From IMG/VR virus record IMGVR_UViG_2693429557_000011: a DNA stretch of 29,524 nt, one strand, 5' to 3'. The notes under the pieces were generated by a model. That model was not told the origin of the DNA. It searched no databases and saw only the letters and a list, made by a program, of their open reading frames with translations. Below, one piece after another: positions 2,916 through 29,524 of this stretch (the stretch's first letter is position 1; each line of letters starts with the position of its first letter). Origin of the DNA: a virus. Its lineage: Duplodnaviria; Heunggongvirae; Uroviricota; Caudoviricetes. The position numbers and the translations under genes were made by a program.

Positions 2916-2974
2916 GGTATCCGTTCTGCTGAAGTGTCATGGCGTTGATTTTACGGTGACTCTTCGACAGTGAA

Positions 2975-2998
2975 AAGAAAAAAGGCCGCAGAGCGGCC
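2975..2998 (-). terminator. Rho-independent terminator read on the minus strand
   Basis: On the plus strand an A-run (aagaaaaaa) is followed by ggccgc-aga-gcggcc. On the minus strand this is a 6-bp GC stem with a 3-nt loop followed by a U-run. It lies about 110 bp downstream of the moron pair and just upstream of btuC. Confidence 0.6.
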
Positions 2999-3107
2999 AT
3001 AAACACAAACAAAAATCAATAAGTTAGGTAATTATCAAAGACTTACAGACACACAAAAACACAGCCAACCACAACAAATAACAGAGATGTGGTCAATTTG
3101 TGGATCA

Positions 3108-4146: not shown

Positions 4147-4148
4147 AG

Positions 4149-5126: not shown

Positions 5127-5175
5127 TCGTGAAGCCCCAGCGTTACAAGACCACCATGCCCCCAGCGTTCCATGA

Positions 5176-11780: not shown

Positions 11781-11784
11781 ACCA

Positions 11785-12096
11785 ATGACGACACCAACCA
11801 GACGGATAAGTTTCTATCTGAAGCCTGCGGCCGTCAAGAACGAAAGCGAAGCATGCGCCTGGCTGGGCAGCCTTACACCAGAAGCCCGCAAAAGCGGCCA
11901 ACGCGTGGCTTTTCTGGCCGGGCTGGCACTTCTGAAAATGAATCCAGCAGAGGCTTACCGACTGGCTGCATGGGCTGACGATGAGGCGTTATCGGTGACA
12001 CAAACCAGGACAGAACGCCCCGTGCCACAGCCAGTACCAACCGCACAGATAACCAGTCAGATAGCAGGGAATATCCGGGCATTATTTCCTGAATGA
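11785..12096 (+). CDS. parR: ParR-like centromere-binding adaptor (103 aa, start MTTPTRRISF)
   Basis: It lies 4 nt after the parM stop with an AAGGAG RBS. Segments RISFYLKP, RVAFLAGLALLKMNP and IRALFPE resemble R1 ParR as recalled (RTIAFKLNP, RAALTAGLALYRQDP, ILRSLFPKE), and the gene order parM-parR matches R1. Confidence 0.65.
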   Translation: MTTPTRRISFYLKPAAVKNESEACAWLGSLTPEARKSGQRVAFLAGLALLKMNPAEAYRLAAWADDEALSVTQTRTERPVPQPVPTAQITSQIAGNIRALFPE

Positions 12097-13608: not shown

Positions 13609-14655
13609 TCAGGATGTGGGCTGGGTGTCTAACAGTGCGTAAGGGTTAAAGCGGATCACCTCTTCGCCAAGCCAGTCATTGATGTGCTTCATGGCCTCCA
13701 TGACGGGCATCAGCTCGTTAATTGCGTAAACCCGCGCGGCCTTCTCCACATCACCAAACGCACTTTTTTCGCCCGGCATCGCCCCCATCAGTTGCGGCGG
13801 AACGCGGTGCGCAGCCAGCACATCATCACGGGATGCCGCCTTAACATTCATGAACTCATCCTTTGCGGTGATCTGCTGGAACGGCAAAATTTGCACCCCC
13901 TCTTTGCCCCCGTTGGGCGCATGAATGAGCACGTTTTTAAACGCACCACCACCACGTGCCCCCTGTAGCGTTTCTTTCAGGGAGTCCATGCTTTCGCGGT
14001 TTACCTGCGCTGCACCGATGTAGATGATGCACCCGGCGTGGGATCCGTTGTCGTAGTACAGTTTTCTGAACATGTCCGCCGAATGAGAAAGGCTGGCCGA
14101 GAGTAATGCGCCAAGATATTCCGGCATGCCGTAGATTTCCTGGTTAATATCCGGATTCATCAGGTGGCACACTTTGCCAGGACGAAACTGAAACGCATCC
14201 TTGCCATCCTGCACATACCACCATGATTCAAGATCGCTTCCGCGTCGCATGTATTTCGCCAGGGCGTGCCGTAATTTAAGCGGTTCGCCGAGCATATTGC
14301 TCCGAAGCTCAAGGAATGCGTTACCGAACACAAACCAGTCCAGCGCCAGCGCCGAGAAATCCTGCCGGGAAAGCAGCGGGTGCGGAATATAGCAGCCGAG
14401 CAATACATTGCGCTTAAAGTAAAGCGCAGACTGATGCCAGGACGTTTGCCGGGCAGCTCTTGCCAGACCGTACCAGTCCACCGGGGTTTCATACCACCGC
14501 CCGTTATCAGCACAGTACATATTGTCCAGCAGGTCATGCCCGGTCAGGCGGTAAGGACCATCAAATGTGAATGCACTGAGCGACGATTCTTTCCTGAGCG
14601 CATCAGCGAGATCAATGCGTGAACTCATGCGCACTTTTTTATTTTTTCTGCTCAT
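13609..14655 (-). CDS. Q: Portal protein (P2 Q-like, 348 aa)
   Basis: The size matches, it is co-oriented and overlaps terminase P (ATGA), and it is divergent from the O-N-M-L block exactly as in P2. Confidence 0.9.
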   Translation of the reverse strand: MSRKNKKVRMSSRIDLADALRKESSLSAFTFDGPYRLTGHDLLDNMYCADNGRWYETPVDWYGLARAARQTSWHQSALYFKRNVLLGCYIPHPLLSRQDFSALALDWFVFGNAFLELRSNMLGEPLKLRHALAKYMRRGSDLESWWYVQDGKDAFQFRPGKVCHLMNPDINQEIYGMPEYLGALLSASLSHSADMFRKLYYDNGSHAGCIIYIGAAQVNRESMDSLKETLQGARGGGAFKNVLIHAPNGGKEGVQILPFQQITAKDEFMNVKAASRDDVLAAHRVPPQLMGAMPGEKSAFGDVEKAARVYAINELMPVMEAMKHINDWLGEEVIRFNPYALLDTQPTS

Positions 14656-16406
14656 CAGAACTCCATAACCGTGAAACGCTCGTTTTCTCCTTCGCCGCCA
14701 ATCGGTTCGTTAATGACAGCAAGCATGGTTGCCCACGCAAGGTCGCCGTGGCTGATCCCCCTCGCGCGGTCCGTTTCGTAAGTGATAAAACCGCCCGGTG
14801 TTTTCACCTTACGCACGGCGTTAAAGGCCGCAACCAGCTCGCGTTCGGCGCGATCGTATTCCCACCGCCCGGCACGCATTATTTGCAGCATTTTCAGTAC
14901 CAGCGACCGTTTTGATGACAGCGTGAAGGTGTAAGGGATGGCGGCGGGAAAAAACCGTTTCACTATCTGATAGACGGCATCCCCGTGCCCGCCCGTCGCA
15001 TCAATGCCGATGTGTTCCACGTTGTAGCGATACGTGAACTCTTCAATAACTCTGGCCTGCTCTTCAAATTCCAGCCCCTGAACGCGTCGCGTCTCCACCG
15101 TTCTGAAACGACCACCAGGAACAGCCGGAGGAACCACCACGGACACAGCGCCGCTGTCGCCGTTACCACTGCTGCCGTTTGCGTCATACCCAATCCATAC
15201 CGGACGATTCCCCATCGGGCGGGGGGCAAAGGGTTTCCAGTCTTTCCAGTCGTCGTATCCGTCAACACCGCAGCCAATCAGGATATTCAGGTTAAATGCC
15301 GATTCCCCTTCGCGGACAAACTCACACATATAGAGATTGCGGAACTCGTCTTCGGTGTTTTCATCACGAATTTCATCAATATCGGTGTGTTTCCAGCCGT
15401 GATTAACCACATCTTCCAGCGTGACAATTTGCCGCCACGTCCGGTCAGGGCAGATAAGCCCGTTATGCAGCGTTTTCCAGTCCACAGAAAAACGCTGGCG
15501 TTTATGCGCGGCCTTTTTCTCGTTCCAGCGGTCGCCGTTCCAGTAGGCGTATGCCTCGTGCGTTTCGGTGGATGGCGTGGAGAAGCAGGTGCGCCGCAGT
15601 CCGCTGAGGGTTGCCATAGCGCCAGCCACCTTGCGCAGTTCAGCAAAGCGACTGACCCAGAAAAATTCATCAAAATAAAAATTGCCCGTGTAAGATTGCG
15701 CCGTCGCAGCAGAAGTGCCGAGAAAATGCATCTCTGCGCCGTTGGAGAGGATGATTTTATCGCCCCCTTTCAGCTCCACATCGACTTCAGCCGCGGCCTT
15801 CTGAATAATGCTTTTAAACTGGAACGCCTGACGACGCGACGCAGACAAAAAAATCTGGTTACGCTGGTAAGGTTGTGCCACATCGTCACGCAGCGCCATC
15901 AGCAGTGCTTCCTGTGCAAAATACCAGGTCGCCCCAATCTGTCGGGATTTCAGGATCATCCTGTTACGTATCCCGGCTTCCCTGCAAAGCGTCAGGGAGT
16001 CAAACCAGCCCCGCTGATGCCACTCCAGCCTGCTGATGATTTTTTCCCGCAGTGCGGCAATCTGTTCCGGCGTGAAATGATTTTTGAGTTTTTTCGCCCG
16101 GCCTTTCTTTCCTGTGGCCGTCGCATCCGGCTGGCCATCATGCAGTTTTTTAAGCTGCCGGGTCAGCAGGTCTATTTCCTTAAAGTCACCACCTGTTTTA
16201 TTCTGTTTTTCAGTAAGCTGGATGAGGCGCGCATCGATGGACTGCGTGACACGCTGCACGGGTGGCGTTTCATCCCACTGGTCGCGTTTTTTCCACGCAT
16301 AAATCGTGTTCGGGTTTATTCCCATCAGACGTGATATTTCTGCGGGCGGATAACCCTGCCAGTAAAGTTGCCGCGCACGCTGGCGCACAAAAGCGTCCTG
16401 AATCAT
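14655..16406 (-). CDS. P: Terminase large (ATPase) subunit (P2 P-like, 583 aa)
   Basis: The size matches P2 P. The position is divergent from the scaffold gene O. The C-terminal half is nuclease-like (DANGSSGNGDSGAVSVV). Confidence 0.9.
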   Translation of the reverse strand: MIQDAFVRQRARQLYWQGYPPAEISRLMGINPNTIYAWKKRDQWDETPPVQRVTQSIDARLIQLTEKQNKTGGDFKEIDLLTRQLKKLHDGQPDATATGKKGRAKKLKNHFTPEQIAALREKIISRLEWHQRGWFDSLTLCREAGIRNRMILKSRQIGATWYFAQEALLMALRDDVAQPYQRNQIFLSASRRQAFQFKSIIQKAAAEVDVELKGGDKIILSNGAEMHFLGTSAATAQSYTGNFYFDEFFWVSRFAELRKVAGAMATLSGLRRTCFSTPSTETHEAYAYWNGDRWNEKKAAHKRQRFSVDWKTLHNGLICPDRTWRQIVTLEDVVNHGWKHTDIDEIRDENTEDEFRNLYMCEFVREGESAFNLNILIGCGVDGYDDWKDWKPFAPRPMGNRPVWIGYDANGSSGNGDSGAVSVVVPPAVPGGRFRTVETRRVQGLEFEEQARVIEEFTYRYNVEHIGIDATGGHGDAVYQIVKRFFPAAIPYTFTLSSKRSLVLKMLQIMRAGRWEYDRAERELVAAFNAVRKVKTPGGFITYETDRARGISHGDLAWATMLAVINEPIGGEGENERFTVMEF

Positions 16407-16560
16407 TGCTCCCCCTGAGTAATTACAGGAAGATTACCCGCGCGCGAAACCGTTCTCCTTAACCCCCTGTTCTGGCCGTTTTCTTACAACAAAAGCCCTT
16501 TGTATCAGCCTGTTACGCTTTGCCATCATGACTGAAGAACCAGTCAGAGGGGCAAAAACT
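16407..16560. promoter_or_regulatory. Divergent late-promoter region (PP leftward, PO rightward), inferred
   Basis: This 154-bp divergent intergenic region between P and O is where Ogr-dependent late promoters lie in P2. It contains the partial dyad tgttctggccgttttcttacaaca. Exact elements are not resolved. Confidence 0.4.
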
Positions 16561-17397
16561 ATGGCTAATGAAAAAAAGACATCCCGCAAAAAGTTTCGCG
16601 TGGCTGTCTCCGGATCAACTGTTGATGGCCGTGAAATCAGTCCGGTGCATCTGCGTGAAGCCGCCGAGAACTTCAACCCGGATGTTTACGCTGCCCGCGT
16701 GAACGTTGAGCACTATCTCTCGCCATGCCCGTCAAGCGAATTTTCCGCAATGGGCGATGTCACCGCACTGAGTACGGAAGACATTACGGAAGGTCCGCTG
16801 GCCGGACGTACTGCGCTGTATGCAGAAATCGAACCGACCGAGCGCATGAAGCAGCTTGTCGCGGACGGCAAGAAAATCTATTCCAGTATCGAACTGCACC
16901 CGCAGTTCTCCGTTAACGGGCGCGCCTATCTGGTCGGGCTGGCGATGACCGACACCCCGGCAAGCCTGGGCACTGAGCGCCTGAAATTCACGGCACAGCA
17001 ACGTCAGGCGGTGATGACGTTCAACAGTATCCAGGGTGAAGCACCGCTTATCTCCGAAGCCATCGAGTCTGAAATCATCGAAATGGCAGAACAACGCCAG
17101 GAAGAAGGCACCCAGTGGTTTAACCGCGTAATGGGGATTATTGGTCGTGGCCGCAAAGCGGATGACGCCAGTTTCTCCCGTATTCAGGAAGCGGTGGAAA
17201 GCGTCGCAACGTCACAGGCCGACATTATCGACCGTTTTAATGCGCTGGAAACACGCCATCAGCAGGACAGCCAGAAAATCACTTTACTGACCACGGAGCT
17301 GACAGCACTGAAGGAAAAACTGCGCACGCAGGACGGCGATCCGCAGAACCGGTTCACCGCAACGGGCGCAGCCTCCGACCAGCTGGCTGACTTCTGA
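16561..17397 (+). CDS. O: Capsid scaffolding protein (P2 O-like, about 278 aa from MANEKK)
   Basis: The N-terminus aligns with P2 O as recalled (MAKKVSKFFRIGVEGDTCDGRVIS vs MANEKKTSRKKFRVAVSGSTVDGREIS), and YLVGLAMTDTPASLGTE is conserved. The six-frame ORF starts earlier, at 16528. Confidence 0.85.
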   Translation: MANEKKTSRKKFRVAVSGSTVDGREISPVHLREAAENFNPDVYAARVNVEHYLSPCPSSEFSAMGDVTALSTEDITEGPLAGRTALYAEIEPTERMKQLVADGKKIYSSIELHPQFSVNGRAYLVGLAMTDTPASLGTERLKFTAQQRQAVMTFNSIQGEAPLISEAIESEIIEMAEQRQEEGTQWFNRVMGIIGRGRKADDASFSRIQEAVESVATSQADIIDRFNALETRHQQDSQKITLLTTELTALKEKLRTQDGDPQNRFTATGAASDQLADF

Positions 17398-17420
17398 TAA
17401 GACAAAGGAGCAAATTTTTT

Positions 17421-18473
17421 ATGAATCTGGTGATGTCAGATATTACCCGCAACAAGCTGGGTTGCTATATGGCGCAGCAGGCGTCGCTTAACAATATCCC
17501 GGTTTCTGCACTGGTATCGCGATTTACCGTGGAACCTGCGGTGCAGCAACGTTTTGAAAACGCCTCAAAGGATAGCACCGAACTTACAAAAAAAATTAAC
17601 GTGATCGGCGTGACCGACCAGAAAGGCGAAAAAATCCTCCTGGACACCACAGGACCGATTGCACGCACAAATACCAGTTATGACGGAACAAAACGCCGTA
17701 ACCCGAATAACGTGGTTGATCTGAAAAACCGCAAATACCAGTGCGAACAGGTGAACTACGACACGTTTATTTCGTATCCGCAGCTTGATGCCTGGTCGGC
17801 ACACAGCGATTTTCAGTCCCGCATCAGCGCACAGATTGCCCGACAGGTGGCACTTGACCGCATCATGATCGGTTTCAACGGCACATCTCACGCGGATGAG
17901 TCCAACTTCAGCACCAACAAGCTGCTTCAGGACGTTAACGTGGGGTGGCTGGAGCACATCAGAACCAATGCCAGCGAGCGCGTAATGAATGACGTGACGC
18001 TGACTTCCCGCAACATGGACAACACCGTGGCGCACGCGGGTAAATACGCGAACCCTGATGCACTGGTACAGGACGCGCGCTCATCTCTGCTGGATGAATG
18101 GCACAAGGAAGCTGACGACCTCGTGGTGATTATGGGGCGCAACCTGTTTAACTCGCTGCGTCTGCCAGTGCTGAACAGCATCAGCGGCCAGAATCCCAAT
18201 GCGGAATTACTTGCCGGGCAGCTCATCCTGTCATCGCGCACCATTGGCGGGCTGGGTGTGTTCCTTGCACCGTTCTTCCCGGATGCAACGATGCTGATCA
18301 CCTCATTCAACAACCTGTCGATTTACTGGCAGAAAGGTTCAATGCGTCGTCTGATGAAAGACGAACCGGAATACAACCGCATCGCCACCTACCAGTCCAT
18401 CAATGACGCTTATGTCGTTGAAGACTATGGCAAGTGCGCGATGGTCACTGGCCTGAAGTTCGCCGACAGCTAA
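17421..18473 (+). CDS. N: Major capsid protein (P2 N-like, 350 aa)
   Basis: It is similar throughout to P2 N as recalled (KFTVEPSV, YECDQINFD, FNGVKRAE, VGWLQ, YVVEDYA versus the corresponding segments here). A strong AAGGAG RBS is present. Confidence 0.9.
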   Translation: MNLVMSDITRNKLGCYMAQQASLNNIPVSALVSRFTVEPAVQQRFENASKDSTELTKKINVIGVTDQKGEKILLDTTGPIARTNTSYDGTKRRNPNNVVDLKNRKYQCEQVNYDTFISYPQLDAWSAHSDFQSRISAQIARQVALDRIMIGFNGTSHADESNFSTNKLLQDVNVGWLEHIRTNASERVMNDVTLTSRNMDNTVAHAGKYANPDALVQDARSSLLDEWHKEADDLVVIMGRNLFNSLRLPVLNSISGQNPNAELLAGQLILSSRTIGGLGVFLAPFFPDATMLITSFNNLSIYWQKGSMRRLMKDEPEYNRIATYQSINDAYVVEDYGKCAMVTGLKFADS

Positions 18474-18482
18474 TCAACTCAC

Positions 18483-18501
18483 GGCGGGCATCATGCCCGC
18501 C
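18483..18501 (+). promoter_or_regulatory. Perfect GC-rich hairpin between N and M
   Basis: The sequence ggcgggcat-c-atgcccgcc forms a hairpin immediately after the N stop codon. No T-run follows, so it may modulate N:M expression or transcript stability. Confidence 0.4.
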
Positions 18502-18518
18502 TGTAACGGAGAGAAAAA

Positions 18519-19319
18519 ATGATTACTCCTGCACAGCAACACTGGCAGAACGTGATGGCACAGCGCGCAGGCCGGGCGAATGAAGGTGTGGACCACGCCG
18601 CGCGTACCGCGCATGAAGAGGTGCTGTATCGTCTGCGTCTGGCACAGGCCCGGCTTAAGGGCGTACAGGCCAGAAGCGCGAAAGCCGACATCAAAAAAGC
18701 GTTGTTGCCGGACTTTTCCGGCTGGATTGAGGGAACGCTGGAGGCTGACGGCGGGCAACAGGACGAAGTGATTGCCACGCTGATGGTGTGGGCGATTGAC
18801 TGCGGCGATCTTCCGCTTGCGCTGCGTATTGGTGCGTATGCGGTCCGTCACAACCTCATCATGCCGGATAACTTTGGCCGTACTGCTGCCACAGTGCTGA
18901 CCGAAGAAATCTGCAATCCGGTACTGACGCAGGCCGGGACGGATGCCGACGCGGATTTGTCCGTCTTTATCGAACCACTGGACACACTTTGGGAAATTGT
19001 CGCCAACCAGGATATGCCGGACGAAGTGCGCGCCAAATTATGCAAGGCGTGCGCCTTTGCCCGCCGTGGCCTGAGCGATGCGGACAGCATGGCCTCATCA
19101 CTGAAGCTGCTGCGCGAAGCGATGCATCTGAACCAGAACGCAGGTGTGAAACGCGAGATTGCAACCCTTTCCCGCGCCCTGAAAAAAGCCGATTCCGCAG
19201 CCGCACCAGAAGACGCCAGCGCACAGCAGGCGCAGGACGAAAGCAGCGAAAGTAAAAAGACAACGCGGAAGCCTGCAACACGAAAAACCACCGCGACGCA
19301 GAAGGCGAAGCGCGGTTAA
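18519..19319 (+). CDS. M: Terminase small / endonuclease subunit (P2 M-like, 266 aa)
   Basis: The position after N and the size fit. The C-terminus is basic (KKTTRKPATRKTTATQKAKRG). Confidence 0.8.
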   Translation: MITPAQQHWQNVMAQRAGRANEGVDHAARTAHEEVLYRLRLAQARLKGVQARSAKADIKKALLPDFSGWIEGTLEADGGQQDEVIATLMVWAIDCGDLPLALRIGAYAVRHNLIMPDNFGRTAATVLTEEICNPVLTQAGTDADADLSVFIEPLDTLWEIVANQDMPDEVRAKLCKACAFARRGLSDADSMASSLKLLREAMHLNQNAGVKREIATLSRALKKADSAAAPEDASAQQAQDESSESKKTTRKPATRKTTATQKAKRG

Positions 19320-19335
19320 CGACTGACCCCGTCAG

Positions 19336-19407
19336 CGGGCGGCGTGCGCGGTGTTCCGGTTTGGCTCCGTGACCGTTTACACCGCGCACCCACCGCCCGA
19401 TTTTTTC
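19336..19407 (+). terminator. Long imperfect hairpin followed by a T-run after M (candidate rho-independent terminator or attenuator)
   Basis: The arm cgggcggcgtgcgcggtg pairs with caccgcgcacccaccgcccg and is followed by attttttc. It lies between the M stop and the L start. Confidence 0.5.
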
Positions 19408-19420
19408 AGGAGTGAACCCC

Positions 19421-19915
19421 ATGAGTATGGTTGCCAGAACTGAACCCGGACCCGCAGAGGACGACATCACCGACACCGAAGATGGCGATACCCGTATTTC
19501 AGCGAGTGCATTCTGGCCGGATATTGTGCTGCGCGAGCTGCGTCTGGCGGTACGACTGCCGGGCCGCGTGACCACCTCCCGCCTGCTGCATACCGCCACC
19601 GGGGCCGTGGCACACGTTACCCGCGAGCTGGAAGCATGGCAGCAGGAACAGCAGGCGGCTGGCCATCAGACGCTGGCCGATGTTCCGGCACCTGTAATTA
19701 ACGGAGAAAGCGTCAATCTCTGGCACTGGCGCAATGCTGTTTATACCGCCACACGCGCCCTGATTCTGGAGCGTTACCGCGATGCGGACACAACGGACAA
19801 GGGCGACCGCCGGGCGGACGCACTGGATATACAGACATCGGATTTGTGGCGCGATGTGAGCTGGGCCATCTCTGACATTCTGTGCCGCCCGCGAATCTTT
19901 GCGGAGTTGTGCTGA
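19421..19915 (+). CDS. L: Head completion / capsid-stabilising protein (P2 L-like, 164 aa from ATG 19421)
   Basis: The protein aligns with P2 L as recalled (RLADVPADDIDGESI, ERYRGVDAS.KGDKKADSID, ELWRDMRWAV). A CAGGAG RBS sits 9 nt upstream of the ATG; the track ORF uses the GTG at 19412. Confidence 0.8.
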   Translation: MSMVARTEPGPAEDDITDTEDGDTRISASAFWPDIVLRELRLAVRLPGRVTTSRLLHTATGAVAHVTRELEAWQQEQQAAGHQTLADVPAPVINGESVNLWHWRNAVYTATRALILERYRDADTTDKGDRRADALDIQTSDLWRDVSWAISDILCRPRIFAELC

Positions 19916-20112
19916 TGAAAGTGAAGACACTGGAAGGCGACACCGTGGATTCGCTCTGTTTCCGGTACTACGGCACGACGCAGGGCGTCACCGAAAAGGT
20001 GCTGGATGCCAACCCCGGACTCTGCCGACAGGTATTTCTGGAAGCCGGACAGGAGGTGGAAATGCCGGAGCCGGAGAAGAAAAAACAACGAGAGATGATA
20101 CAGCTATGGTAA
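19915..20112 (+). CDS. X: Tail protein X-like (65 aa)
   Basis: An ATGA start/stop overlap with L, the size and the position match P2 X (67 aa). Confidence 0.7.
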   Translation: MKVKTLEGDTVDSLCFRYYGTTQGVTEKVLDANPGLCRQVFLEAGQEVEMPEPEKKKQREMIQLW

Positions 20113-20408
20113 CAGGTTTTTTTCAGCGGGTGAGTGACTGGATCACCTTCTGGGCATCAGTCACAGCCACCACAATAGGCGTGATGACCATCAGTGAAAA
20201 AATCGCCCTTGCCGGGTTGTTACTCGGTTCTCTGTCTGCATTACATGCCTGGCGACATCGCCGCCTGATGGAAACCGCCATGCAGCGTCGCAATGAACTC
20301 ATCGCCAGTATCCTGGCGCAGTCAGACGCACGGCCACTTCACGACAGTGAGCGTCAGGCTCTGAACATTCTGCGGGATAACGATACACATGATAAAGCTG
20401 CCCGTTAA
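20106..20408 (+). CDS. Putative holin (100 aa, two hydrophobic segments)
   Basis: It sits directly upstream of the endolysin. It has two predicted TM helices (WITFWASVTATTIGVMTI and IALAGLLLGSLSALHAW) and a charged C-terminus. It is not similar to P2 Y as I recall it. Confidence 0.5.
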   Translation: MVTGFFQRVSDWITFWASVTATTIGVMTISEKIALAGLLLGSLSALHAWRHRRLMETAMQRRNELIASILAQSDARPLHDSERQALNILRDNDTHDKAAR

Positions 20409-20937
20409 ACGTTACGCCGTAGCCGCCATTGTGGCGCTGGGGTTCTCCATTGCCCCTCACAAACTCCGGACCAGCCCGGAAGCGCAAATCCGCATTGCCA
20501 CATGGGAGGACTGTCGCGCAACGCCTTACCGGGATATTGCCGGGGTAATGACCGTGGGGTGCGGCTCGACCGGGCATGTGGAAAATCGTCTGTACACCGA
20601 AACGGAAGTCGCCGGGCGCTGGGTTAATGATATGCAACATGCAGAAAACTGCATAAATCAGAACTTCAGCGGCAACGCCATGCCACAGTCCGCGTTTGAG
20701 GCAATGACAGATGCCGCCTTTAATCTTGGATGCAGAAATCTTATGTGGTTCAGGGATAAGAACCGTAACTACCACCGCACCACTATCTGGAAACATGCAC
20801 AGGCGCACAACTGGCCTGACATGTGCAACAGACTGACTGACTTCGTGAACAGCGGCGGCGAACGCTCACAGGGACTGGTTAACCGTCGTACTGATTTTCG
20901 TGCATGGTGCTTACGTGACACCGGAGGCCAGTCATGA
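20389..20937 (+). CDS. SAR-endolysin, T4-lysozyme-like muramidase with N-terminal signal-anchor-release domain (182 aa)
   Basis: An N-terminal weakly hydrophobic Gly/Ala-rich segment (YAVAAIVALGFSIAP) is followed by an E-x8-D/C-x5-T catalytic arrangement (ATWEDCRATPYRDIAGVMTVGCGSTGH), as in phage P21 R-type SAR lysozymes. It differs from the P2 K lysozyme as recalled. Confidence 0.75.
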   Translation: MIKLPVKRYAVAAIVALGFSIAPHKLRTSPEAQIRIATWEDCRATPYRDIAGVMTVGCGSTGHVENRLYTETEVAGRWVNDMQHAENCINQNFSGNAMPQSAFEAMTDAAFNLGCRNLMWFRDKNRNYHRTTIWKHAQAHNWPDMCNRLTDFVNSGGERSQGLVNRRTDFRAWCLRDTGGQS

Positions 20938-21407
20938 AAGTGCGTTACATCCTGATGATGGCACTGACCGTCCTCACGCTGCTGACCATAACACTCTGGC
21001 AGACATTCAGACTGGGGCAGGAAGACGGACACAACCGTTATACACAGGCGCAACTGGACGATTACAGCCGGACCCTGAAAGAGGCCGGCACCATCATCAG
21101 CACCGCATCCGGTGTACTGCGTGACGTCATGACAGCGCGCCAGAACCGACAACAGGAAGGGGAAATCCGACGTGAACAGCTACGCAACGATATCACGACA
21201 GATGCATGTGCCCGCGCTGTTCCTGACGCTCGCTTTACTGAGCGGTTGCACCAGCACGCAGAACGCGTCCGCGCCGCCGCCGTCGTTCCGTTTCATCCCG
21301 GAAGGGCTGACCGCCCCCGTACTTCCCCCGCCGTTTCCGGTGACGCCATCATGGGGAAACATCGGGATATGGAGCGACAGCCTCATGGACGCACTGGAAA
21401 CCTGTAA
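20934..21407 (+). CDS. lysB: i-spanin (Rz / P2 LysB-like, 157 aa)
   Basis: It has an N-terminal TM helix and a coiled-coil periplasmic part. The C-terminal region resembles P2 LysB as recalled (AVPDARFTERLHQ vs LPDAVRRLHQ). An o-spanin ORF is nested in the +1 frame. Confidence 0.6.
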   Translation: MKVRYILMMALTVLTLLTITLWQTFRLGQEDGHNRYTQAQLDDYSRTLKEAGTIISTASGVLRDVMTARQNRQQEGEIRREQLRNDITTDACARAVPDARFTERLHQHAERVRAAAVVPFHPGRADRPRTSPAVSGDAIMGKHRDMERQPHGRTGNL

Positions 21408-21492
21408 CGCCGATAAGCGGGCCATTGAATTACTGGAACAGCGCAGGCTGCAACGACTGAACAACGAGGACAACAACCATGCTGAAAACTGA
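21202..21492 (+). CDS. lysC: o-spanin lipoprotein (Rz1 / LysC-like, about 96 aa), nested and overlapping lysB
   Basis: MHVPALFLTLALLSGCTS has a lipobox, and the protein is Pro-rich (PPPSFRFIPEGLTAPVLPPPFP). The ORF begins inside lysB in another frame and extends past it, which is the classic spanin architecture. Confidence 0.6.
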   Translation: MHVPALFLTLALLSGCTSTQNASAPPPSFRFIPEGLTAPVLPPPFPVTPSWGNIGIWSDSLMDALETCNADKRAIELLEQRRLQRLNNEDNNHAEN

Positions 21493-21946
21493 TTCCCTGC
21501 GTGAAGCCATGACCCGTTCATGCCGGTGGTGTCATGCCAACCCGGAAAAATTCACCATTTTCGTGGAGAGCGGCAACATTGAAACGACCGGAGAAACCCC
21601 ATCGTTTGTTTACCGCTATCAGATAGTGATGTTTGTCATGGATTACGCCGGAGAGCTGGACGACCTCACGCTGCCGCTGCTGGCGTGGTTATCCGAAAAT
21701 CAGCCACAGTTGTTGCTCAATCCGGAGCGTAATCAGGACATCAAATTTTCCGCCGTTATCAATGACGATGACAGCGCCGATCTCCTGTTTACGCTCCCCC
21801 TGCGGGAACGCGTTCGCATCACGCGCAGCAGTCAGGGCACACCGCAGGCAGAACACCTGCCGGAGCCAAAACCCCGCCTGCCCTCTTCCGAAGGCGACTG
21901 GTCGCATGTATTCCAGGATGTGACGTGGGGGGAAAGCGATGGATAA
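21479..21946 (+). CDS. R: Tail completion protein R-like (155 aa)
   Basis: It matches the size of P2 R (155 aa) and is similar as recalled (MLKPDSLRRALT vs MLKTDSLREAMT; LAWLRENQPD vs LAWLSENQPQ). Confidence 0.8.
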   Translation: MLKTDSLREAMTRSCRWCHANPEKFTIFVESGNIETTGETPSFVYRYQIVMFVMDYAGELDDLTLPLLAWLSENQPQLLLNPERNQDIKFSAVINDDDSADLLFTLPLRERVRITRSSQGTPQAEHLPEPKPRLPSSEGDWSHVFQDVTWGESDG

Positions 21947-22574
21947 GGCATTCACCCGCGTGGATGAAACCTTTGAGGCTATCCGCGACAGCCTGAATCA
22001 GCAGGCCATTAATAACATCGCCAGAAAGCTGGCACAGGATTTACGCCGCGCCCAGCAGGCGCGTATCCGGTCACAGAAAGCGCCGGACGGGACCGCATGG
22101 ACACCACGCAGACGCCGCGTAACCCGGATACAGGAGCGCATTCGCTTTATCTGGAATAACGAAGCACGCACGCTGAAAAACTGGCATCACGACACGGGGA
22201 AATACGGGCGAACCATCACCGGGTGGGATGAGGATAAAAACAATATCCGCACGTTTTACCGGGATGACATCGACCGTTTTCTGGAAATACGCACCCGGCG
22301 CATCAACCAGGACAGCACCAGGCGCGTCTCCATGTTCGTAAAACTGCGCACCGCCCGCTACCTGAAAGCCCGTGCAGATGCTTCCGGTGTGACGGTGGGT
22401 TACAGCGGCGTGGCCGCACGTATTGCACGCGTTCATCAGTTCGGTGAGCGCGATCAGGTTGCGCCGGGCATTTTCACCGATTACCCGGTACGTGAGCTGC
22501 TGGGTATCAGCCAGGCAGATGAGCGCCTGATTTATAACACGGTGCTGGGCCGGATTGCGGAGGCTGTACGATGA
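21939..22574 (+). CDS. S: Tail completion / virion morphogenesis protein S-like (211 aa)
   Basis: The position between R and V fits, and it overlaps both neighbours. It is longer than P2 S (150 aa). Confidence 0.65.
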   Translation: MDKAFTRVDETFEAIRDSLNQQAINNIARKLAQDLRRAQQARIRSQKAPDGTAWTPRRRRVTRIQERIRFIWNNEARTLKNWHHDTGKYGRTITGWDEDKNNIRTFYRDDIDRFLEIRTRRINQDSTRRVSMFVKLRTARYLKARADASGVTVGYSGVAARIARVHQFGERDQVAPGIFTDYPVRELLGISQADERLIYNTVLGRIAEAVR

Positions 22575-23152
22575 GCGCAGAACTCATGCGACTGCTGAGC
22601 AATATCATCCGCACCGGGATCATCTCTGAAGTTGATGAGGAATCCTGGTGCGTGCGCGTTCGCAGCGGCGAACTGGAAACAGGCTGGCTGCGCTGGAACA
22701 CCACGCGCGCGGGAGACTTCAACGTGTGGTTTCCGCCATCACCAGGCGAACAGGTGGCAATTGCCTGCATCGGCGGCAACCCGGAAACCGCCATGATAAT
22801 CGGCAGCCTGTGGAGTGATGCCATTCCGGCACCCGGCAAAAGCCTGAAAGAAATCGTGGTCAGCGCGCCGGACGGCGCGGTGTTCCGCTACGACGCGGAC
22901 GCAGGCGCACTGAGCGCAAGCGGCATGAAAACGGCCACTTTGCAGGCATCCATCAGCGTGACACTGAACACGCCTGTCGTGGAATGCACAGACCTTCTGA
23001 GAACAGCGACGCTTGACGTCACAAAAGGGGGAACGATGAGCGGCAATATCACGCACAGCGGCGGCGATTTCACCTCAAACGGCATCACAGTGCATACGCA
23101 TAAGCACGGTGGCGTTAAAGGTGGCAGCGATTCGACAGGAGGCCCGCAGTGA
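22571..23152 (+). CDS. V: Baseplate spike / assembly protein V-like (193 aa)
   Basis: This is the gene V position. The fold signature (WLRWNTTRAGDFNVWFPPSPGEQV) resembles the gp5/V spike OB-fold region. Confidence 0.75.
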   Translation: MSAELMRLLSNIIRTGIISEVDEESWCVRVRSGELETGWLRWNTTRAGDFNVWFPPSPGEQVAIACIGGNPETAMIIGSLWSDAIPAPGKSLKEIVVSAPDGAVFRYDADAGALSASGMKTATLQASISVTLNTPVVECTDLLRTATLDVTKGGTMSGNITHSGGDFTSNGITVHTHKHGGVKGGSDSTGGPQ

Positions 23153-23499
23153 CAACCCGCTACACAGGAATGAACCCGGACGGGACGGGAAACCTGAACG
23201 ATATGGCGCACCTGAAACAGTCAGTCAGGGACATCCTGACCACCCCGCTGGCAAGCCGGGTTATGCGACGGGAATATGGCAGCCTTGTGCCTGATTTGAT
23301 TGACGAACCCATGAATAACACCACGCGTCTGCAATGCATGAGTGCTACCGTGATTGCACTGACACGATGGGAACCACGCATTGCCCTGAACGCCATCGAC
23401 GTTGTCTGGAAGGCAGGAGGCCACGCCGGGGTGACGCTGTCGGGCACTGTCATGCAGACCATGCAGAATGTTGAATTAACCATCACGCTGAGGGAGTAA
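23149..23499 (+). CDS. W: Baseplate wedge protein W-like (gp25 family, 116 aa)
   Basis: The size matches P2 W (115 aa), it lies between V and J, and it overlaps V by 4 nt. Confidence 0.8.
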   Translation: MTTRYTGMNPDGTGNLNDMAHLKQSVRDILTTPLASRVMRREYGSLVPDLIDEPMNNTTRLQCMSATVIALTRWEPRIALNAIDVVWKAGGHAGVTLSGTVMQTMQNVELTITLRE

Positions 23500-23502
23500 A
23501 TC

Positions 23503-24399
23503 ATGCCTGCCGTTGACCTTTCCCAGTTACCGGAACCCGCCATCATCGCGGAGCCTGACTTTGAGGCAATTCTGGCTGACACAAAGGCCATGATGATTGC
23601 AGCTTATCCCGCCGAACAGCGTGAAGTCGTCTCCGCCGCACTGGAACTGGAATCGGAACCCCTGAACGTTATCGCTCAAACCATGTCGTTTCGTGAAATG
23701 CTGTTACGCCAGCGGGTCAATGAGGCCGCACGCGCCTGCATGTTGAGCCACAGCGCCGGAACAGACCTGGACAACCTCGCGGGCAATATGAACACAAAGC
23801 GCCTGGTTATCACTCCGGCAACGGATACCACCGACGTGGTGATGGAGAACGACACCTCGCTGAGACTGCGGGCGCAGCGGGCGTATGACGGCCTGAGTGT
23901 TGCAGGCCCGTCAGGCGCATACGAGTATTTTGCCCGCAGCGCCAGCGGTCTGGTGCGCGATGCGCGGGCCATCAGTCCGTCTCCGGCAAATGTGACGGTT
24001 TCCATCCTGTCCACTGAGGGCGACGGCACAGCAACGGAGGCGTTGCTTAATACCGTTCGCGCCGTTCTGAATGCAGAGGATACCCGCCCGGTGGCCGACC
24101 GCCTGACCGTACAGAGTGCCAGAATCGTGACATGGCGGCTGAATGCAAAACTGTACTTTTACCCCGGTCCGGAATCCGAACCTATTCTGGCTGCGGCTGA
24201 ATCGTCGTTCAGGAAGTGGCTGGCTGAGCAGGGGCTTATCGGTCAGGACGTGGCGTTGTCCGCCATTGCTGCCGCACTGCATGTGCACGGTGTGCAACGC
24301 GTGGAGATAATCGAACCCACACAGAATATGGCCATCAGCGACATACAGGCGGCGCGCTGTGAGTCATTCACCATCAGCGAAGGTGGGCGTAATGAGTAA
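23503..24399 (+). CDS. J: Baseplate protein J-like (298 aa)
   Basis: The size matches P2 J (302 aa) and the gene order W-J-I-H is preserved. Confidence 0.8.
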   Translation: MPAVDLSQLPEPAIIAEPDFEAILADTKAMMIAAYPAEQREVVSAALELESEPLNVIAQTMSFREMLLRQRVNEAARACMLSHSAGTDLDNLAGNMNTKRLVITPATDTTDVVMENDTSLRLRAQRAYDGLSVAGPSGAYEYFARSASGLVRDARAISPSPANVTVSILSTEGDGTATEALLNTVRAVLNAEDTRPVADRLTVQSARIVTWRLNAKLYFYPGPESEPILAAAESSFRKWLAEQGLIGQDVALSAIAAALHVHGVQRVEIIEPTQNMAISDIQAARCESFTISEGGRNE

Positions 24400-24922
24400 T
24401 TCACTGTTACCACCATCAGCCAGCAATTTCATGCGTTGTGCCGAAGCCGTCGGAACACGCATTACAGACATTCCGGCAGACCTCAACACGCTGTGGTCGC
24501 CGGACACCTGCCCGGTGCATCTGCTGCCTTATCTCGCCTGGGCGTTTTCCGTTGACCGCTGGGATCGCAACTGGCCGGAAGAGACAAAGCGACAGGTGAT
24601 TCGTGATGCATGGCTGATACACCGACACAAAGGAACCATCAGCGCCCTGCGACGGGCCATTGAGCCGCTGGGATACCTCATTCGCGTGTCTGAGTGGTGG
24701 GAGTTCAACGGCGAACCCGGAACATTCAAGATTGATGTTGGCACGCTGGACAGTGGCGTGACGGAGGAAATGTATCTGGAAATGGAGCGGTTGATTGCTG
24801 ATGCCCGCCCGGTCAGCCGCCACATGACAGGGCTGAATATCATTCAGGAGATTCAGGGAGATATTTTCGCGGCAGCAGCAACTTACGACGGTGAAGTCAT
24901 TACCATTTATCCGGACGATTAA
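24392..24922 (+). CDS. I: Baseplate protein I-like (176 aa, start MSNSLLPP)
   Basis: The size matches P2 I (176 aa). Its start overlaps the J stop. Confidence 0.75.
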   Translation: MSNSLLPPSASNFMRCAEAVGTRITDIPADLNTLWSPDTCPVHLLPYLAWAFSVDRWDRNWPEETKRQVIRDAWLIHRHKGTISALRRAIEPLGYLIRVSEWWEFNGEPGTFKIDVGTLDSGVTEEMYLEMERLIADARPVSRHMTGLNIIQEIQGDIFAAAATYDGEVITIYPDD

Positions 24923-24924
24923 GC

Positions 24925-25848
24925 ATGAGTACCACAACACGAAAATTTAAAACCATTATCACCGATACGGGTGCAAAAAAATTAGCGCAGGCAACCGCGC
25001 CAGATGGGAAACCTGTCCGCCTGACACATATGGCCGTGGGTGACGGCGGCGGTACTTTACCCACGCCAGACAGTAAGCAGACCCGTCTTGTGCATGAGGT
25101 GTGGCGACATACCGTTAATCGCGTCACCCTGGACGCAACACATCAGAACCACATTATTGCGGAGCTGGTTATTCCTCCTGAAACGGGCGGATTCTGGATC
25201 CGGGAAATTGGTGTGTTTGATGAGCACGGCGATTTGATCGCGGTAGGCAATACTGCCGAAAGTTACAAGCCAACCGTTGCCGAAGGATCCGGACGTGCAC
25301 AAACATTTCGCACCATTCTGACCGTATCCAGCACTGCCACTGTGGCGCTTACCGTGGATAACACCATGGTGATGGCCACAGTGAATTACGTGGATGACAA
25401 ACTGAAAGAGCATGAACAGTCACGACGTCACCCGGACGCCTCGCTGACCGCAAAAGGCCTTGTCCAGCTCAGCAACGCCACCAACAGCACGTCTGAAACG
25501 CTGGCAGCGACACCAAAAGCCGTTAAGGCAGTAATGGATGAAACGAACAAGAAAGCCCCATTAAACAGCCCGGCACTGACCGGAACGCCAACAACACCAA
25601 CTGCGCGACAGGGAACGAATAATACCCAAATCGCAAGCACGGCTTTCGTTATGGCTGCGATTGCCGCCCTTGTAGATTCGTCACCTGATGCACTGAACAC
25701 GCTGAACGAGCTGGCTGCGGCGCTGGGCAACGACCCGAATTTTGCGACCACCATGACTAACGCGCTTGCGGGTAAGCAACCGAAAGATGCCACTCTGACG
25801 GCGCTGGCGGGGCTTGCTACTGCGGCAGACAGGTTTCCGTATTTTACN
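24925..25848 (+). CDS. H: Tail fibre protein H-like, N-terminal ~308 codons only (truncated at the 'nn' at 25849)
   Basis: It follows baseplate I as in P2. The conserved tail-fibre segment GLVQLSNATNSTSETLAATPKAVKAVMDETNKKAPLNSPALTGTPTTPTA...NELAAALG is shared with lambda Stf, which is known P2 H / lambda Stf homology. The reading frame is lost after the nn. Confidence 0.8.
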
Positions 25849-25850
25849 NC
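25849..25850. other. Two ambiguous bases (nn): probable contig/scaffold junction
   Basis: The nn is seen directly. The sequence to the left is P2-like H, and the sequence to the right is the in-frame C-terminus of a lambda J-type protein, with no stop or start in between. Confidence 0.6.
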
Positions 25851-26962
25851 GCAGTGTGAACACCGTTGGCAAATCGGCATTCGTGGAGGCTGTCGGTCGG
25901 GCGAGCGATGATGCGGAAGGTTACTTGGATTTTTTCAAAGGAGAGATAGGGAAAACACATCTGGCTCAGGAGCTGTGGACGCAGATTGATAACGGTCAGC
26001 TTGCGCCTGACCTGGCTGAAATCAGGACGTCCATTACGGATGTCAGCAATGAAATCACGCAGACCGTCAATAAGAAACTGGAAGACCAGAGTGCGGCAAT
26101 TCAGCAGATACAGAAGGTTCAGGTTGATACAAATAATAATCTGAACAGCATGTGGGCTGTGAAGCTGCAACAGATGAAGGACGGACGCCTTTATATTGCG
26201 GGTATCGGTGCCGGTATTGAGAATACGCCAGCAGGAATGCAGAGTCAGGTGCTGCTGGCGGCAGACAGGATTGCGATGATTAATCCTGCGAATGGCAACA
26301 CAAAGCCGATGTTTGTTGGTCAGGGCGATCAGATATTCATGAACGACGTGTTCCTGAAACGCCTGACGGCTCCCACCATTACCAGCGGCGGTAATCCTCC
26401 GGCATTTTCCCTGACACCGGACGGAAAACTGACCGCTAAAAATGCAGATATCAGTGGCAGTGTGAATGCGAACGCCGGGACGCTCAACAATGTCACAATT
26501 AATGAGAACTGTCAGATTAAGGGGAAACTGTCAGCCAACCAGATTGAAGGCGATATAGTCAAAACAGTGGGTAAGGCTTTTCCGCGGGACTCCCGGGCAC
26601 CGGAGCGGTGGCCATCAGGGACCATTACCGTCAGGATTTATGACGATCAGCCTTTTGACAGGCAAATTGTTATTCCGGCGGTGGCATTCAGCGGCGCTAA
26701 ACATGAGCGGGAGAATAACGATATTTATTCGTCATGCCGCCTGATAGTACGGAAAAACGGTGCTGAAATTTATAACCGTACCGCGCTGGATAATACGCTG
26801 ATTTACAGTGGTGTTATTGATATGCCAGCTGGTCGCGGCCACATGACGCTGGAGTTTTCGGTGTCAGCATGGCTGGTGAATAACTGGTATCCCACAGCAA
26901 GTATCAGCGATTTGCTGGTTGTGGTGATGAAGAAAGCCACCGCAGGCATCAGTATCAGCTGA
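25851..26962 (+). CDS. J: C-terminal ~370 aa of a lambda J-type central tail fibre / host-specificity protein (receptor-binding end)
   Basis: [29 protein letters not shown] ... [26 protein letters not shown] ... [44 protein letters not shown] ... MPAGRG ... [10 protein letters not shown] closely follows my recollection of the lambda gpJ C-terminus. It is followed by lom and stf as in lambda. It has no start codon (partial, 5' truncated). Confidence 0.8.
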
Positions 26963-26980
26963 ATTTTATAACCCATATAC

Positions 26981-27006
26981 GGGCGCCAGAAATGGCGCCT
27001 TTTTTA
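26981..27006 (+). terminator. Rho-independent terminator after J
   Basis: The hairpin gggcgcc-agaaat-ggcgcc is followed by tttttt. Confidence 0.7.
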
Positions 27007-27029
27007 TTGCAGAAAAGCGAGAGGTAATT

Positions 27030-27661
27030 ATGCGTAAAGTTTGTGCAGCCATTTTGTCCGCAGCCATTTGCCTGGCCGTATCCGGTGCGCCTGCATGGGC
27101 GTCTGAACATCAGTCCACACTGAGCGCGGGGTATCTTCATGCCCGTACGAACGCTCCCGGCAGCGATAATCTGAACGGGATTAACGTGAAATACCGTTAT
27201 GAGTTTACGGACGCGCTGGGGCTGNNNNNNNNNNNNNNNNNNNNNNNNNNNNNNNNNNNNNNNNNNNNNNNNNNNNNNNNNNNNNNNNNNNNNNNNNNNN
27301 NNNNTACAGCGATACCCGCTGGCATGAAGATTCCGTGCGTAACCGCTGGTTCAGCGTGATGGCGGGGCCGTCTGTACGCGTGAATGAATGGTTCAGCGCG
27401 TATGCGATGGTGGGTGTGGCTTACAGCCGTGTGTCGACTTTCTCCGGGGATTATCTCCGCGTAACTGACAACAAGGGGAAAACGCACGATGTGCTGACCG
27501 GAAGTGATGACGGTCGCCACAGCAACACGTCTCTGGCGTGGGGGGCTGGCGTGCAGTTTAACCCGACCGAATCCGTGACCATTGACCTTGCTTATGAAGG
27601 TTCCGGTAGTGGTGACTGGCGAACGGATGCATTTATTGTTGGTATCGGATACCGTATCTGA
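27030..27661 (+). CDS. lom: Lom-family outer-membrane beta-barrel protein (Ail/OmpX/PagC family), interrupted by an 80-N gap
   Basis: MRKVCAAILSAAICLAVSGAPAWASEHQSTLSAGYLHARTNAPGSDNLNGINVKYRYEFTD on one side and ...RWFSVMAGPSVRVNEWFSAYAMVGVAYSRVSTF...GIGYRI on the other are near-identical to lambda Lom as recalled. The apparent frame change is caused by the N-run at 27225-27304. Confidence 0.85.
27225..27304. other. Assembly gap (80 N) inside lom
   Basis: The run of n characters is seen directly. Confidence 0.99.
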
Positions 27662-27766
27662 CAACAGACGCCGATTTATCTTCTGTAAATATTGTTATGA
27701 TACGCAGGTTCATCCACCTTATGGGGTGAACTGCGTTTGAGGAAACGTAAAGTTACACTGTCCTGA

Positions 27767-27800
27767 AGCCCGTGGCGTCACTGCTGCGGGCTTTTTTTAT
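27767..27800 (+). terminator. Rho-independent terminator after lom
   Basis: The arm aagcccg pairs with cgggctt across tggcgtcactgctg and is followed by a T7 run. Confidence 0.65.
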
Positions 27801-27812
27801 TGGTGGAAAAGT

Positions 27813-29524
27813 ATGACAGTAAAAATTTCTGGCGTGCTTAAAGATGGCACAGGAAAACCAGTACAGAACTGCACCATTGTGCTGAAGGCCAGACGAACCA
27901 GCAGCACGATGGTGGTGAACACGGTGGCCTCTGAAAATCCGGATGAAGCCGGACGTTACAGCATGGATGTTGAGCATGGTCAGTACAGCGTCACCCTGCT
28001 GGTTGAAGGTTTTCCGCCTTCACATGCCGGGACCATTACCGTCTATGAAGGTTCCAGACCAGGTACGCTGAATGATTTTCTCGGTGCCATGACGGAGGAT
28101 GATGTCCGACCGGAGGCACTGCGCCGCTTTGAGCAGATGGTGGAAGAGGTGTCACGTAACGCCTCCGCGGTTGCACAGAATACGGCAGCCGCGAAAAAAT
28201 CAGCCAGCGAGGCGGCAACTCATGCAACCGATGCTGCAGCCTCAGCACGTGCCGCCAGCACGTCAGCCGGACAGGCCGCGTCGTCGGCTCAGTCAGCGTC
28301 TTCCAGCGCAGGAACGGCATCGACAAAGGCCCGTGAAGCAGCAAAAAGTGCTGCTGCAGAGTCATCAAAAAGCGCGGCAGCTACCAGCGCCAGTGCCGCG
28401 AAAACGTCAGAAACGAATGCCGCAGCATCACAAAAATCGGCAGCCACTTCTGCATCCACAGCGACCACGAAGGCGTCAGAAGCTGCCACCTCGGCACGGG
28501 GTGCGGCGGCCTCAAAAGAGGCAGCGAAATCTTCAGAAACGAATGCATCATCAAGTGCCAGTAGTGCAGCTTCCTCGGCAACGGCGGCAGGAAATTCCGC
28601 GAAGGCGGCAAAAACGTCCGAGACGAACGCTAAGTCTTCTGAAACAGCAGCGGGACAGAGCGCCTCAGCTGCGGCAGGTTCAAAAACAGCGGCTGCATTA
28701 TCTGCCAGTGCCGCGTCAACAAGTGCCGGGCAGGCCTCAGCCAGTGCCACCGCCGCCGGAAAATCGGCAGAAAGCGCCGCATCATCCGCTTCAACAGCCA
28801 CAACGAAGGCTGGCAAAGCCACTGAGCAAGCCACTGCAGCAGCGAGGTCTGCTTCTGCAGCAAAAACCTCTGAAACAAATGCAAAGACTTCAGCAGACAA
28901 TGCTGCTTCCTCTAAGGCAGCAGCCGCATCGTCAGCCAGTTCAGCGGCGTCATCGGCATCATCTGCGTCTGCTTCAAAAGATGAGGCGACCAGACAAGCG
29001 TCAGCAGCGAAAGGTAGTGCCACGACAGCAACAACGAAAGCATCAGAGGCGGCAGGCAGTGCGACGGCTGCATCTCAGAGCAAAGTTGCTGCTGAATCCG
29101 CGGCAACGCGCGCCGAGACAGCAGCAAAACGGGCAGAGGATATTGCATCCGCCGTGGCGCTTGAGGATGCGAGCACGACGAAAAAGGGGATAGTACAGCT
29201 CAGCAGTGCGACCAACAGCACTTCCGAGTCACTGGCGGCAACGCCAAAAGCGGTTAAGGCGGTAATGGGTGAAACGAACAAGAAAGCGCCCTTAAATAGT
29301 CCTGCACTGACCGGAACGCCAACAACACCAACTGCGCGACAGGGAACGAATAATACCCAAATCGCAAGCACGGCTTTCGTTATGGCTGCGATTGCCGCAC
29401 TTGTAGACTCTTCGCCTGATGCACTGAACACACTGAACGAGCTGGCGGCGGCGCTGGGCAACGACCCGAATTTTGCGACCACCATGACTAACGCGCTTGC
29501 GGGTAAGCAACCGAAAGATGCCAC
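27813..29524 (+). CDS. stf: Lambda Stf-type side tail fibre, N-terminal ~570 codons (open at the window end)
   Basis: The N-terminus MTVKISGVLKDGTGKPVQNCTIVLKARR...YSMDVEHGQYSVTLLVEGFPPSHAGTITVYE is near-identical to lambda Stf as recalled (MAVKISGVLKDGTGKPVQNCTIQLKARR...). A long Ala/Ser-rich repeat region follows, then the conserved KKGIVQLSSATNSTSESLAATPKAV...NELAAALGNDPNFATTMTNALAGKQPKDA segment. There is no stop within the window, so the six-frame track omits it; the track shows only out-of-frame artefacts there. Confidence 0.85.
   Translation, partial: MTVKISGVLKDGTGKPVQNCTIVLKARRTSSTMVVNTVASENPDEAGRYSMDVEHGQYSVTLLVEGFPPSHAGTITVYEGSRPGTLNDFLGAMTEDDVRPEALRRFEQMVEEVSRNASAVAQNTAAAKKSASEAATHATDAAASARAASTSAGQAASSAQSASSSAGTASTKAREAAKSAAAESSKSAAATSASAAKTSETNAAASQKSAATSASTATTKASEAATSARGAAASKEAAKSSETNASSSASSAASSATAAGNSAKAAKTSETNAKSSETAAGQSASAAAGSKTAAALSASAASTSAGQASASATAAGKSAESAASSASTATTKAGKATEQATAAARSASAAKTSETNAKTSADNAASSKAAAASSASSAASSASSASASKDEATRQASAAKGSATTATTKASEAAGSATAASQSKVAAESAATRAETAAKRAEDIASAVALEDASTTKKGIVQLSSATNSTSESLAATPKAVKAVMGETNKKAPLNSPALTGTPTTPTARQGTNNTQIASTAFVMAAIAALVDSSPDALNTLNELAAALGNDPNFATTMTNALAGKQPKDA

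Follow-up and report, generated by a model that had tools for sequence, protein, structure and literature searches.

A two-N gap between a P2-like tail-fibre gene and a lambda-type J gene is almost certainly a scaffold join

Several described systems bear on a stretch of DNA in which the tail-fibre gene H of a P2-like prophage is followed directly by the tip attachment gene J of a lambda-like one. A tail-fibre block is reportedly common to P2 H, lambda Stf and Mu/P1 S, and Haggard-Ljungquist and colleagues are said to have linked it, in 1992, to the horizontal exchange of fibre modules. Natural fibre mosaics of this kind recombine a fibre with a fibre, within the block and in frame. Tail fibres are also varied by invertible segments, as in the Mu Gin, P1 Cin and e14 Pin type, and rearrangements between prophages occur in E. 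coli and Shigella. Chimeras of P2 gpH have been engineered as in-frame fusions to the S16 gp37 fibre, expressed with the matching chaperone (PMC9594776). The last system is a technical one, i.e., the misjoins that repeats induce in short-read assemblies.

The locus described here touches each of these systems to a different degree. With natural mosaics it shares the fibre block, since the break lies inside that block and the H and stf copies in the window are 90-96% identical. In contrast to such mosaics, the partner is the middle of J, a sequence without homology to the block: the H/stf block and J have only a 6-nt string in common, and the junction does not fall in sequence homologous between the two parents. 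Finished relatives carry an invertible tail-fibre segment, with the attendant graph branching just past the break, although the segment itself is outside the window. The engineered gpH chimeras likewise combine an N-terminal gpH with a foreign receptor-binding C-terminus, whereas here the two parts are out of frame and the partner is a tail-tip protein. From short-read misjoins we find no difference in kind, the very short gap of two N's being unusual. The likenesses are N's at a non-collinear point, near-identical flanks, ends within multi-copy tail genes, a second gap of the wrong length, a probable phase swap and tiny-N joins in the middle of J (in the records L076 and L100).

The window, by which we mean the whole 29,524-nt stretch of DNA that was analysed, contains exactly two runs of N's, and the sequence before, between and after them is referred to below as contigs A, B and C:

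25848-25849, unstranded: NN gap, from contig A (P2-like prophage) to contig B (lambda-like tail genes)
27225-27304, unstranded: 80-N scaffold gap in lom, of wrong length, standing for 48 bases of VR50 (L002 7376-7423)

The 80-N run alters the lom reading frame, leaving the two lom halves in different frames. With 80 N's in place of 48 real bases and a broken lom frame, the N runs of this record are to be taken as estimated gaps and not as masked sequence of true length. The join across the lom gap is nevertheless collinear with VR50 and many other genomes. At the first gap, all comparative alignments end at 25847 and resume at 25850, so that the only non-collinear point of the record coincides exactly with the NN.

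To the left of this gap, the window carries E. coli chromosome followed by a P2-like prophage, whose relevant features are as follows:

30-2915: E. coli chromosome with nlpC, btuD, btuE and btuC
4149-5276: integrase of the P2-like prophage
22571-23152, + strand: V (PHROGs, Pfam)
23149-23499, + strand: W (PHROGs, Pfam)
23503-24399, + strand: J of the P2 type (PHROGs, Pfam Baseplate_J)
24392-24922, + strand: I, immediately upstream of H (PHROGs, Pfam Tail_P2_I)
24925-25847, + strand: first 307 codons of H (Phage_tail_fib PF12571, E 2e-55; Phage_fiber_2 PF03406; phrog_381, tail fibre)

Besides the integrase, the P2-like prophage contains replication and ParM-like genes as well as portal, terminase, capsid, lysis, tail and baseplate genes. 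An earlier note on this DNA, made from the letters alone, had described a coherent P2-like late operon in the order V, W, J, I, H, and PHROGs and Pfam agree. The V-W-J-I block (22571-24922, + strand) falls into PHROGs baseplate and tail families and is 99.9% collinear with finished genomes; as context, these four genes mark the left side as a P2-like late operon of the normal kind. H follows gpI in that operon and has the N-terminal tail-collar/fibre domain of a P2 gpH-type protein. It is cut at ...ADRFPYF(T), the end of contig A, with 307 of its 678 codons kept. Neither a complete H with its receptor-binding C-terminus nor the downstream tail-fibre assembly gene (tfa) is in the window, and both are found in finished relatives. 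The same applies to the rest of the P2-like prophage (D, ogr, the attR side and so on), which the earlier note had rightly listed as missing.

Two further observations concern the left side. The stretch from the replication gene to the portal gene includes, at 10821-12096, a ParM-like gene (StbA_N/ParM_N) and a Plasmid_stab_B gene, a pair that amounts to a plasmid-type segregation module within an integrated P2-like prophage. At the extreme left, bases 1-30, downstream of nlpC, are continued in none of the complete E. coli genomes, a few of which match from base 20. A search of these 30 bases for the edge of an IS element gave no match in any retrieved locus; they may mark the border of an insertion peculiar to the strain, or be a further effect of a contig end.

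To the right of the NN gap the window changes to tail genes of a lambda-like prophage:

25850-26962, + strand: last 370 codons and stop codon (26960-26962) of a lambda-type tip attachment gene J (Pfam, PDB)
27030-27661, + strand: lom, encoding an Ail/Lom outer-membrane protein, interrupted by the 80-N gap (Pfam Ail_Lom, E 9e-71, for the 3' part)
27813-29524, + strand: stf side tail fibre, N-terminal 570 codons, open at the window end (phage_tail_N, E 2e-69; phrog_8713)

The earlier reading of this side as a lambda-like J-lom-stf block is borne out by the lambda J structure in the PDB, by Pfam and by PHROGs. The J fragment, which lacks a start codon, retrieves lambda J at E 8e-117 and A8 gpJ at E 3e-140 in the PDB, and in Pfam it matches part of Ig_J_second followed by Phage_Tail_Tip (PF09327) and Ig_GpJ_C (PF12421). 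A C-terminus with Phage_Tail_Tip and Ig_GpJ_C, with lom and stf coming next, is the arrangement of a lambda-type J. Position 25850 of the window corresponds to base 2362 of the 3,474-bp J of VR50, and the fragment is 98.3% identical to VR50 J from codon ~787 onwards; the start codon and the N-terminal ~790 residues of a full-length J are not in the window. The loss of ~760 codons given in the earlier note is thus too small, the figure being ~787 by VR50's 1,157-aa J. That note had also called the C-terminal part LamB-binding, which is unproven: the receptor-binding domain in the last 131 residues (26567-26959) scores 90 bits to lambda J versus 140 bits to A8 gpJ (PDB 9wca), and by this similarity the receptor of the lambdoid prophage may differ from LamB.

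The stf gene aligns with that of VR50, whose start is at L002 7932. A 364-aa ORF at 28099-29193 was considered as stf and rejected as an alternative frame in an Ala-rich repeat region, the true stf frame running from 27813. Within stf, the region 28188-28889 holds six copies of a 33-nt repeat, 63-82% identical to the reference copy.

We then consider the junction as it is written. The earlier note had stated that the H frame runs into the N's and that the sequence continues as the middle of J without a start codon. Both statements hold; the frames, however, are not continuous, as H and J are out of register by one base across the literal 2-nt spacer. Read past the NN, the H frame gives 21 further codons before a stop at 25909-25911, and there is no continuous in-frame ORF over the junction. 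The J fragment begins at profile position 76 of 105 of Pfam Ig_J_second, inside a folded Ig-like domain and at no module boundary.

A 2-kb query spanning the junction was compared with 5,426 complete E. coli genomes. Matches were found in 4,668 of them, with every J-side match beginning exactly at 25850, and in none of the 5,426 were both flanks found at one place. A search for the final 16 bases of the left flank separated by 0-30 nt from the initial 20 bases of the right flank gave no match in genome, metagenome or viral contig collections, although literal N's in stored records may escape such a search. Each flank alone occurs in at least 120 viral contigs. Among the matches listed for the left flank, all 120 copies go on with GGGGAATGA..., which is the continuation of the tail fibre; past 25847, H continues as GGGGAATGATGTCGCCAGCC.... 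Upstream of 25850, J reads ...TTATTTTTAC(G/A)T(T/C), and among the matches listed for the right flank 131 of 132 copies are preceded by J sequence (...TATTTTTACGTT or ...CTTTTATATC), the remaining contig starting 3 nt before the flank. Contigs in other assemblies also end close to these points, six of them stopping 97-196 nt past the left-flank motif and four starting 3-120 nt ahead of the right-flank motif.

Finished genomes run through the break. The closest relative found, CP026836.1 (L243/L251), lies outside the complete E. coli RefSeq collection that we used, as does CP032523.1 (L244/L252), and the source organism may therefore belong to a lineage that does not bear the E. coli label. CP026836.1 is collinear with window positions 2157-22681 at 99.98% (4 mismatches) and with positions 14392-25847 at 99.94% (7 mismatches). 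Beyond the break it has an H of 678 aa, tfa, an inverted second tfa with an alternative fibre C-terminus and a Resolvase-family invertase, after which come gpU, the tape measure gene (T), gpE and the tube gene (FII). The layout in FDAARGOS_943 (99.89%) is as in CP026836.1, with an H of 678 aa. Among the retrieved loci, L001 and L251 hold the 3' part of H, the tail-fibre assembly gene and tail genes, while L003 holds D, ogr and the attR side by ihfA; in O26 RM8426 the btuC-ihfA site is again occupied by a complete prophage, at whose end ogr and hok are followed by ihfA. We observed IS3-family insertions in the tail-fibre region of both CP026836.1 and CP032523.1.

With the two flanks never contiguous elsewhere, each continuing as its own gene, and a 99.9%-identical prophage running straight through, the scaffold join that the earlier note had suspected becomes the preferred reading. 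On these alignments, 25848-25849 is almost certainly a scaffold gap that glues two unrelated prophages together, an assembly artefact with no hybrid phage protein. The apparent feature at this position is not biological, and its components are all ordinary, namely a P2-type prophage at btuC-ihfA, a lambdoid J-lom-stf block and a long-known shared fibre block. A repeat-induced join of contigs A and B that is false, or at least unsupported, would explain the record, a reading to which we give a probability of roughly 0.87.

The repeat in question is the tail-fibre block shared by H and stf, which the window holds in two copies:

25452-25847, + strand: H copy of the block common to stf (direct repeat with 29183-29482)
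29183-29524, + strand: stf copy of the shared tail-fibre block, inside which the window ends (repeat comparison)

Over 300 nt (25452-25751 against 29183-29482) the copies are 90% identical, and 25563-25793 matches 29294-29524 at 222 of 231 positions, including uninterrupted stretches of 95 and 77 bp. The ~220-bp stf-like repeat reported earlier is therefore real, whereas its placement is not: the break lies inside the shared block and not immediately after it. In contigs with the stf context, the block (~515 bp) covers H from nt ~528 to nt ~1033-1055, and the break at H nt 923 leaves some 110-130 nt of it still to come. Within the window the repeat seems to end earlier because the window itself stops at 29524. 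Projected onto the H copy, that end falls at 25793, and contig A reaches 54 nt further into the block. The final ~230 nt of the window, although part of the stf copy, match the H of FDAARGOS_943 at 100% identity. The position of the right end within the same tail-fibre block fits a record that is a whole scaffold and whose end is repeat-induced too.

From H nt ~995, i.e., 72 nt beyond the break, homology is also seen inverted in other contigs. Judged from these contigs, the crossover of an invertible segment lies here, which gives the assembly graph a second reason to branch. Near-identical finished prophages do have an invertible tail-fibre segment shortly downstream of the break (L001 12464-15168; L251 12572-16543). 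Its content is tfa, an inverted tfa', an alternative fibre C-terminus and a Resolvase-family invertase, with IS3-family insertions in some genomes. The source strain probably carries such a segment as well, to go by relatives that are 99.9% identical, the segment being outside the window.

How far copy number accounts for the two contig ends was assessed at both breaks. In FDAARGOS_943, the 300 bp before the H break match one place and the 300 bp past it match four. Across the population the left and right sides of the H break are similar (1,521 versus 1,848 places), and the clear one-to-four step is confined to this closest E. coli genome. At the J break, 600 bp to the left and right in VR50 J match 15,136 versus 11,313 places, with medians of 3 versus 2 per genome. 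As a reason for contig B starting exactly at 25850, this step was rejected; it goes in the right direction and is too modest. Contig A and the window itself both stop within the H/stf block; for the start of contig B, in J, the evidence of repeated sequence is modest. The suggestion of a repeat-induced break in the earlier note agrees with the position of the contig A end in a multi-copy tail-fibre block and with the wrong length of the record's other gap.

The block also contains a cluster of differences from the finished relatives:

25668-25716, + strand: six clustered differences from finished relatives (25668, 25677, 25680, 25683, 25701 and 25716)

These six positions differ from the window in 8 of 8 related finished or large genomes that are otherwise ~99.9% identical, and in the comparison with CP026836.1, which covers 11,456 bp, they account for 6 of the 7 mismatches. 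The bases that the relatives have in H at the six sites occur in the window's stf copy (29399-29447), and exact repeats of 95 and at least 77 bp lie on either side of the patch. A clustered patch between exact repeats is what would be expected of a short-read assembler that fails to phase a variant bubble, and the patch is probably such a swap between the two repeat copies. It could instead have come about by natural gene conversion, as the block is a mosaic across phages. In the contexts of the variants in 120 viral contigs, the window's stf variant appears in 4 H contexts and 0 stf contexts, a suggestive distribution that is compatible with an assembler swap and with gene conversion alike.

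Under the preferred reading, the window would be a short-read draft scaffold made from at least three contigs: A (1-25847) with the chromosome and the P2-like prophage to the middle of H, B (25850-27224) with the final third of a lambda-type J and the beginning of lom, and C (27305-29524) with the remainder of lom and the 5' portion of stf. The N runs would be size-estimated gaps of 2 and 80 introduced by a paired-read scaffolder or gap closer, an assembler behaviour that we infer. Contig A would end where a de Bruijn-type graph branches, in the H/stf block and shortly before the crossover of the invertible segment, and contig B would start in J, a multi-copy gene in most E. coli genomes. The B-C join is correct, whereas the A-B join would be false, or at any rate without a counterpart in any other genome. 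As a speculation, the A-B link may have come from spurious reads out of the shared block, which recurs ~3.3 kb downstream of the contig B start. In the real genome, H would most probably be intact at 678 aa and followed by the rest of its prophage, and the J fragment would belong to a separate lambdoid prophage.

Breaks of this type are not confined to the present record. In L076 (IMGVR_UViG_2700989365_000006), four mid-J fragments are chained head to tail by single N's at 158-4836, and in L100 J is broken at NNN (2537-2539); in both, lambdoid tail genes seem to have suffered the same kind of scaffolding error. For the present prophage, the longest contig is only 20-50 kb in 934 of 1,373 index blocks.

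Among the alternatives, the one that fares best holds that the order and orientation of the contigs are right and the size of the gap is wrong. The lambdoid contig would then have been placed downstream of the P2-like contig, perhaps in a reference-guided manner or through long-insert pairs, and the two N's would stand for many kb of unassembled, repeat-rich DNA: what is left of the P2-like prophage, then chromosome, and the head and tail genes of the lambdoid prophage. The lom gap does show that gap lengths here are unreliable, and the repeats in which both contigs end would leave intervening contigs unplaced. However, the differing lengths of 2 and 80 suggest insert-size estimates and not placeholders, and the missing DNA (at least ~12 kb of the P2-like prophage plus most of the lambdoid one) is beyond the reach of short-insert pairs. 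In addition, a lambdoid prophage beside this site was seen in none of the loci examined, which show ihfA or tail genes instead. We consider this explanation unlikely.

Less likely again is that the adjacency is real, having arisen by microhomology-mediated illegitimate recombination between the P2-like prophage at btuC-ihfA and a lambdoid prophage. Here the NN would represent ambiguous base calls, H codon 307 would be fused to the middle of J, and the intervening DNA would have been deleted or inverted. If true, the window would hold two dead prophage remnants, with H a truncated pseudogene unless the true spacer is 3n+1. Two N's are unusually short for a gap, rearrangements between prophages are known in E. 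coli and Shigella, and a microhomology, TATTTT(T)AC, closes contig A and in other J genes lies 3 nt ahead of the point where contig B starts. Nevertheless, the 6-nt match (TTTTAC / TATTTT) that adjoins both ends is too weak as support, since a shared 6-mer is found in ~2% of random junction pairs (p ~0.02). The junction is absent from the 5,426 complete genomes and from the three contig collections, the N's fall exactly at the sole non-collinear point of a record whose other gap is demonstrably wrong in length, both junction ends lie in multi-copy sequence, and a near-identical prophage is intact in 8 of 8 finished or large relatives. Taken at this weight, real recombination is very improbable.

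A functional chimeric fibre, in which the baseplate-attachment domain of H is fused in frame to the receptor-binding region of J (in the earlier note, an extraordinary fibre if real), has in its favour only the juxtaposition itself and the existence of P2 gpH chimeras, natural as well as engineered, that carry the C-termini of other fibres (PMC9594776), and is effectively excluded by the one-base frame difference across a 2-nt gap with the H stop at 25911 (in frame only if the spacer were 3n+1), by a J part that would begin inside an Ig-like domain, by the missing tail-fibre assembly and tail genes of the P2-like prophage, by gpH being a baseplate fibre of a contractile, myovirus-type tail and J the central tip of a non-contractile, siphovirus-type tail, and by a junction not seen elsewhere in the 5,426 genomes and three collections.

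The scaffold join therefore remains our preferred reading, and it matters for how the record is used. An annotator who accepted the join as it stands would record a hybrid prophage or a novel H-J fusion fibre and would count the P2-like prophage as truncated and defective. In the source strain that prophage is most probably intact, since finished genomes contain it whole at 99.9% identity. The practical lesson is that no hybrid prophage and no truncated H should be annotated here and that the SNP cluster at 25668-25716 should be distrusted; as such, the value of the case is one of data hygiene. For tail-fibre loci of this kind, it shows the H/stf block and the adjacent invertible segment breaking short-read assemblies, and patches swapped between the H and stf copies may give false SNP clusters in host-range genes.
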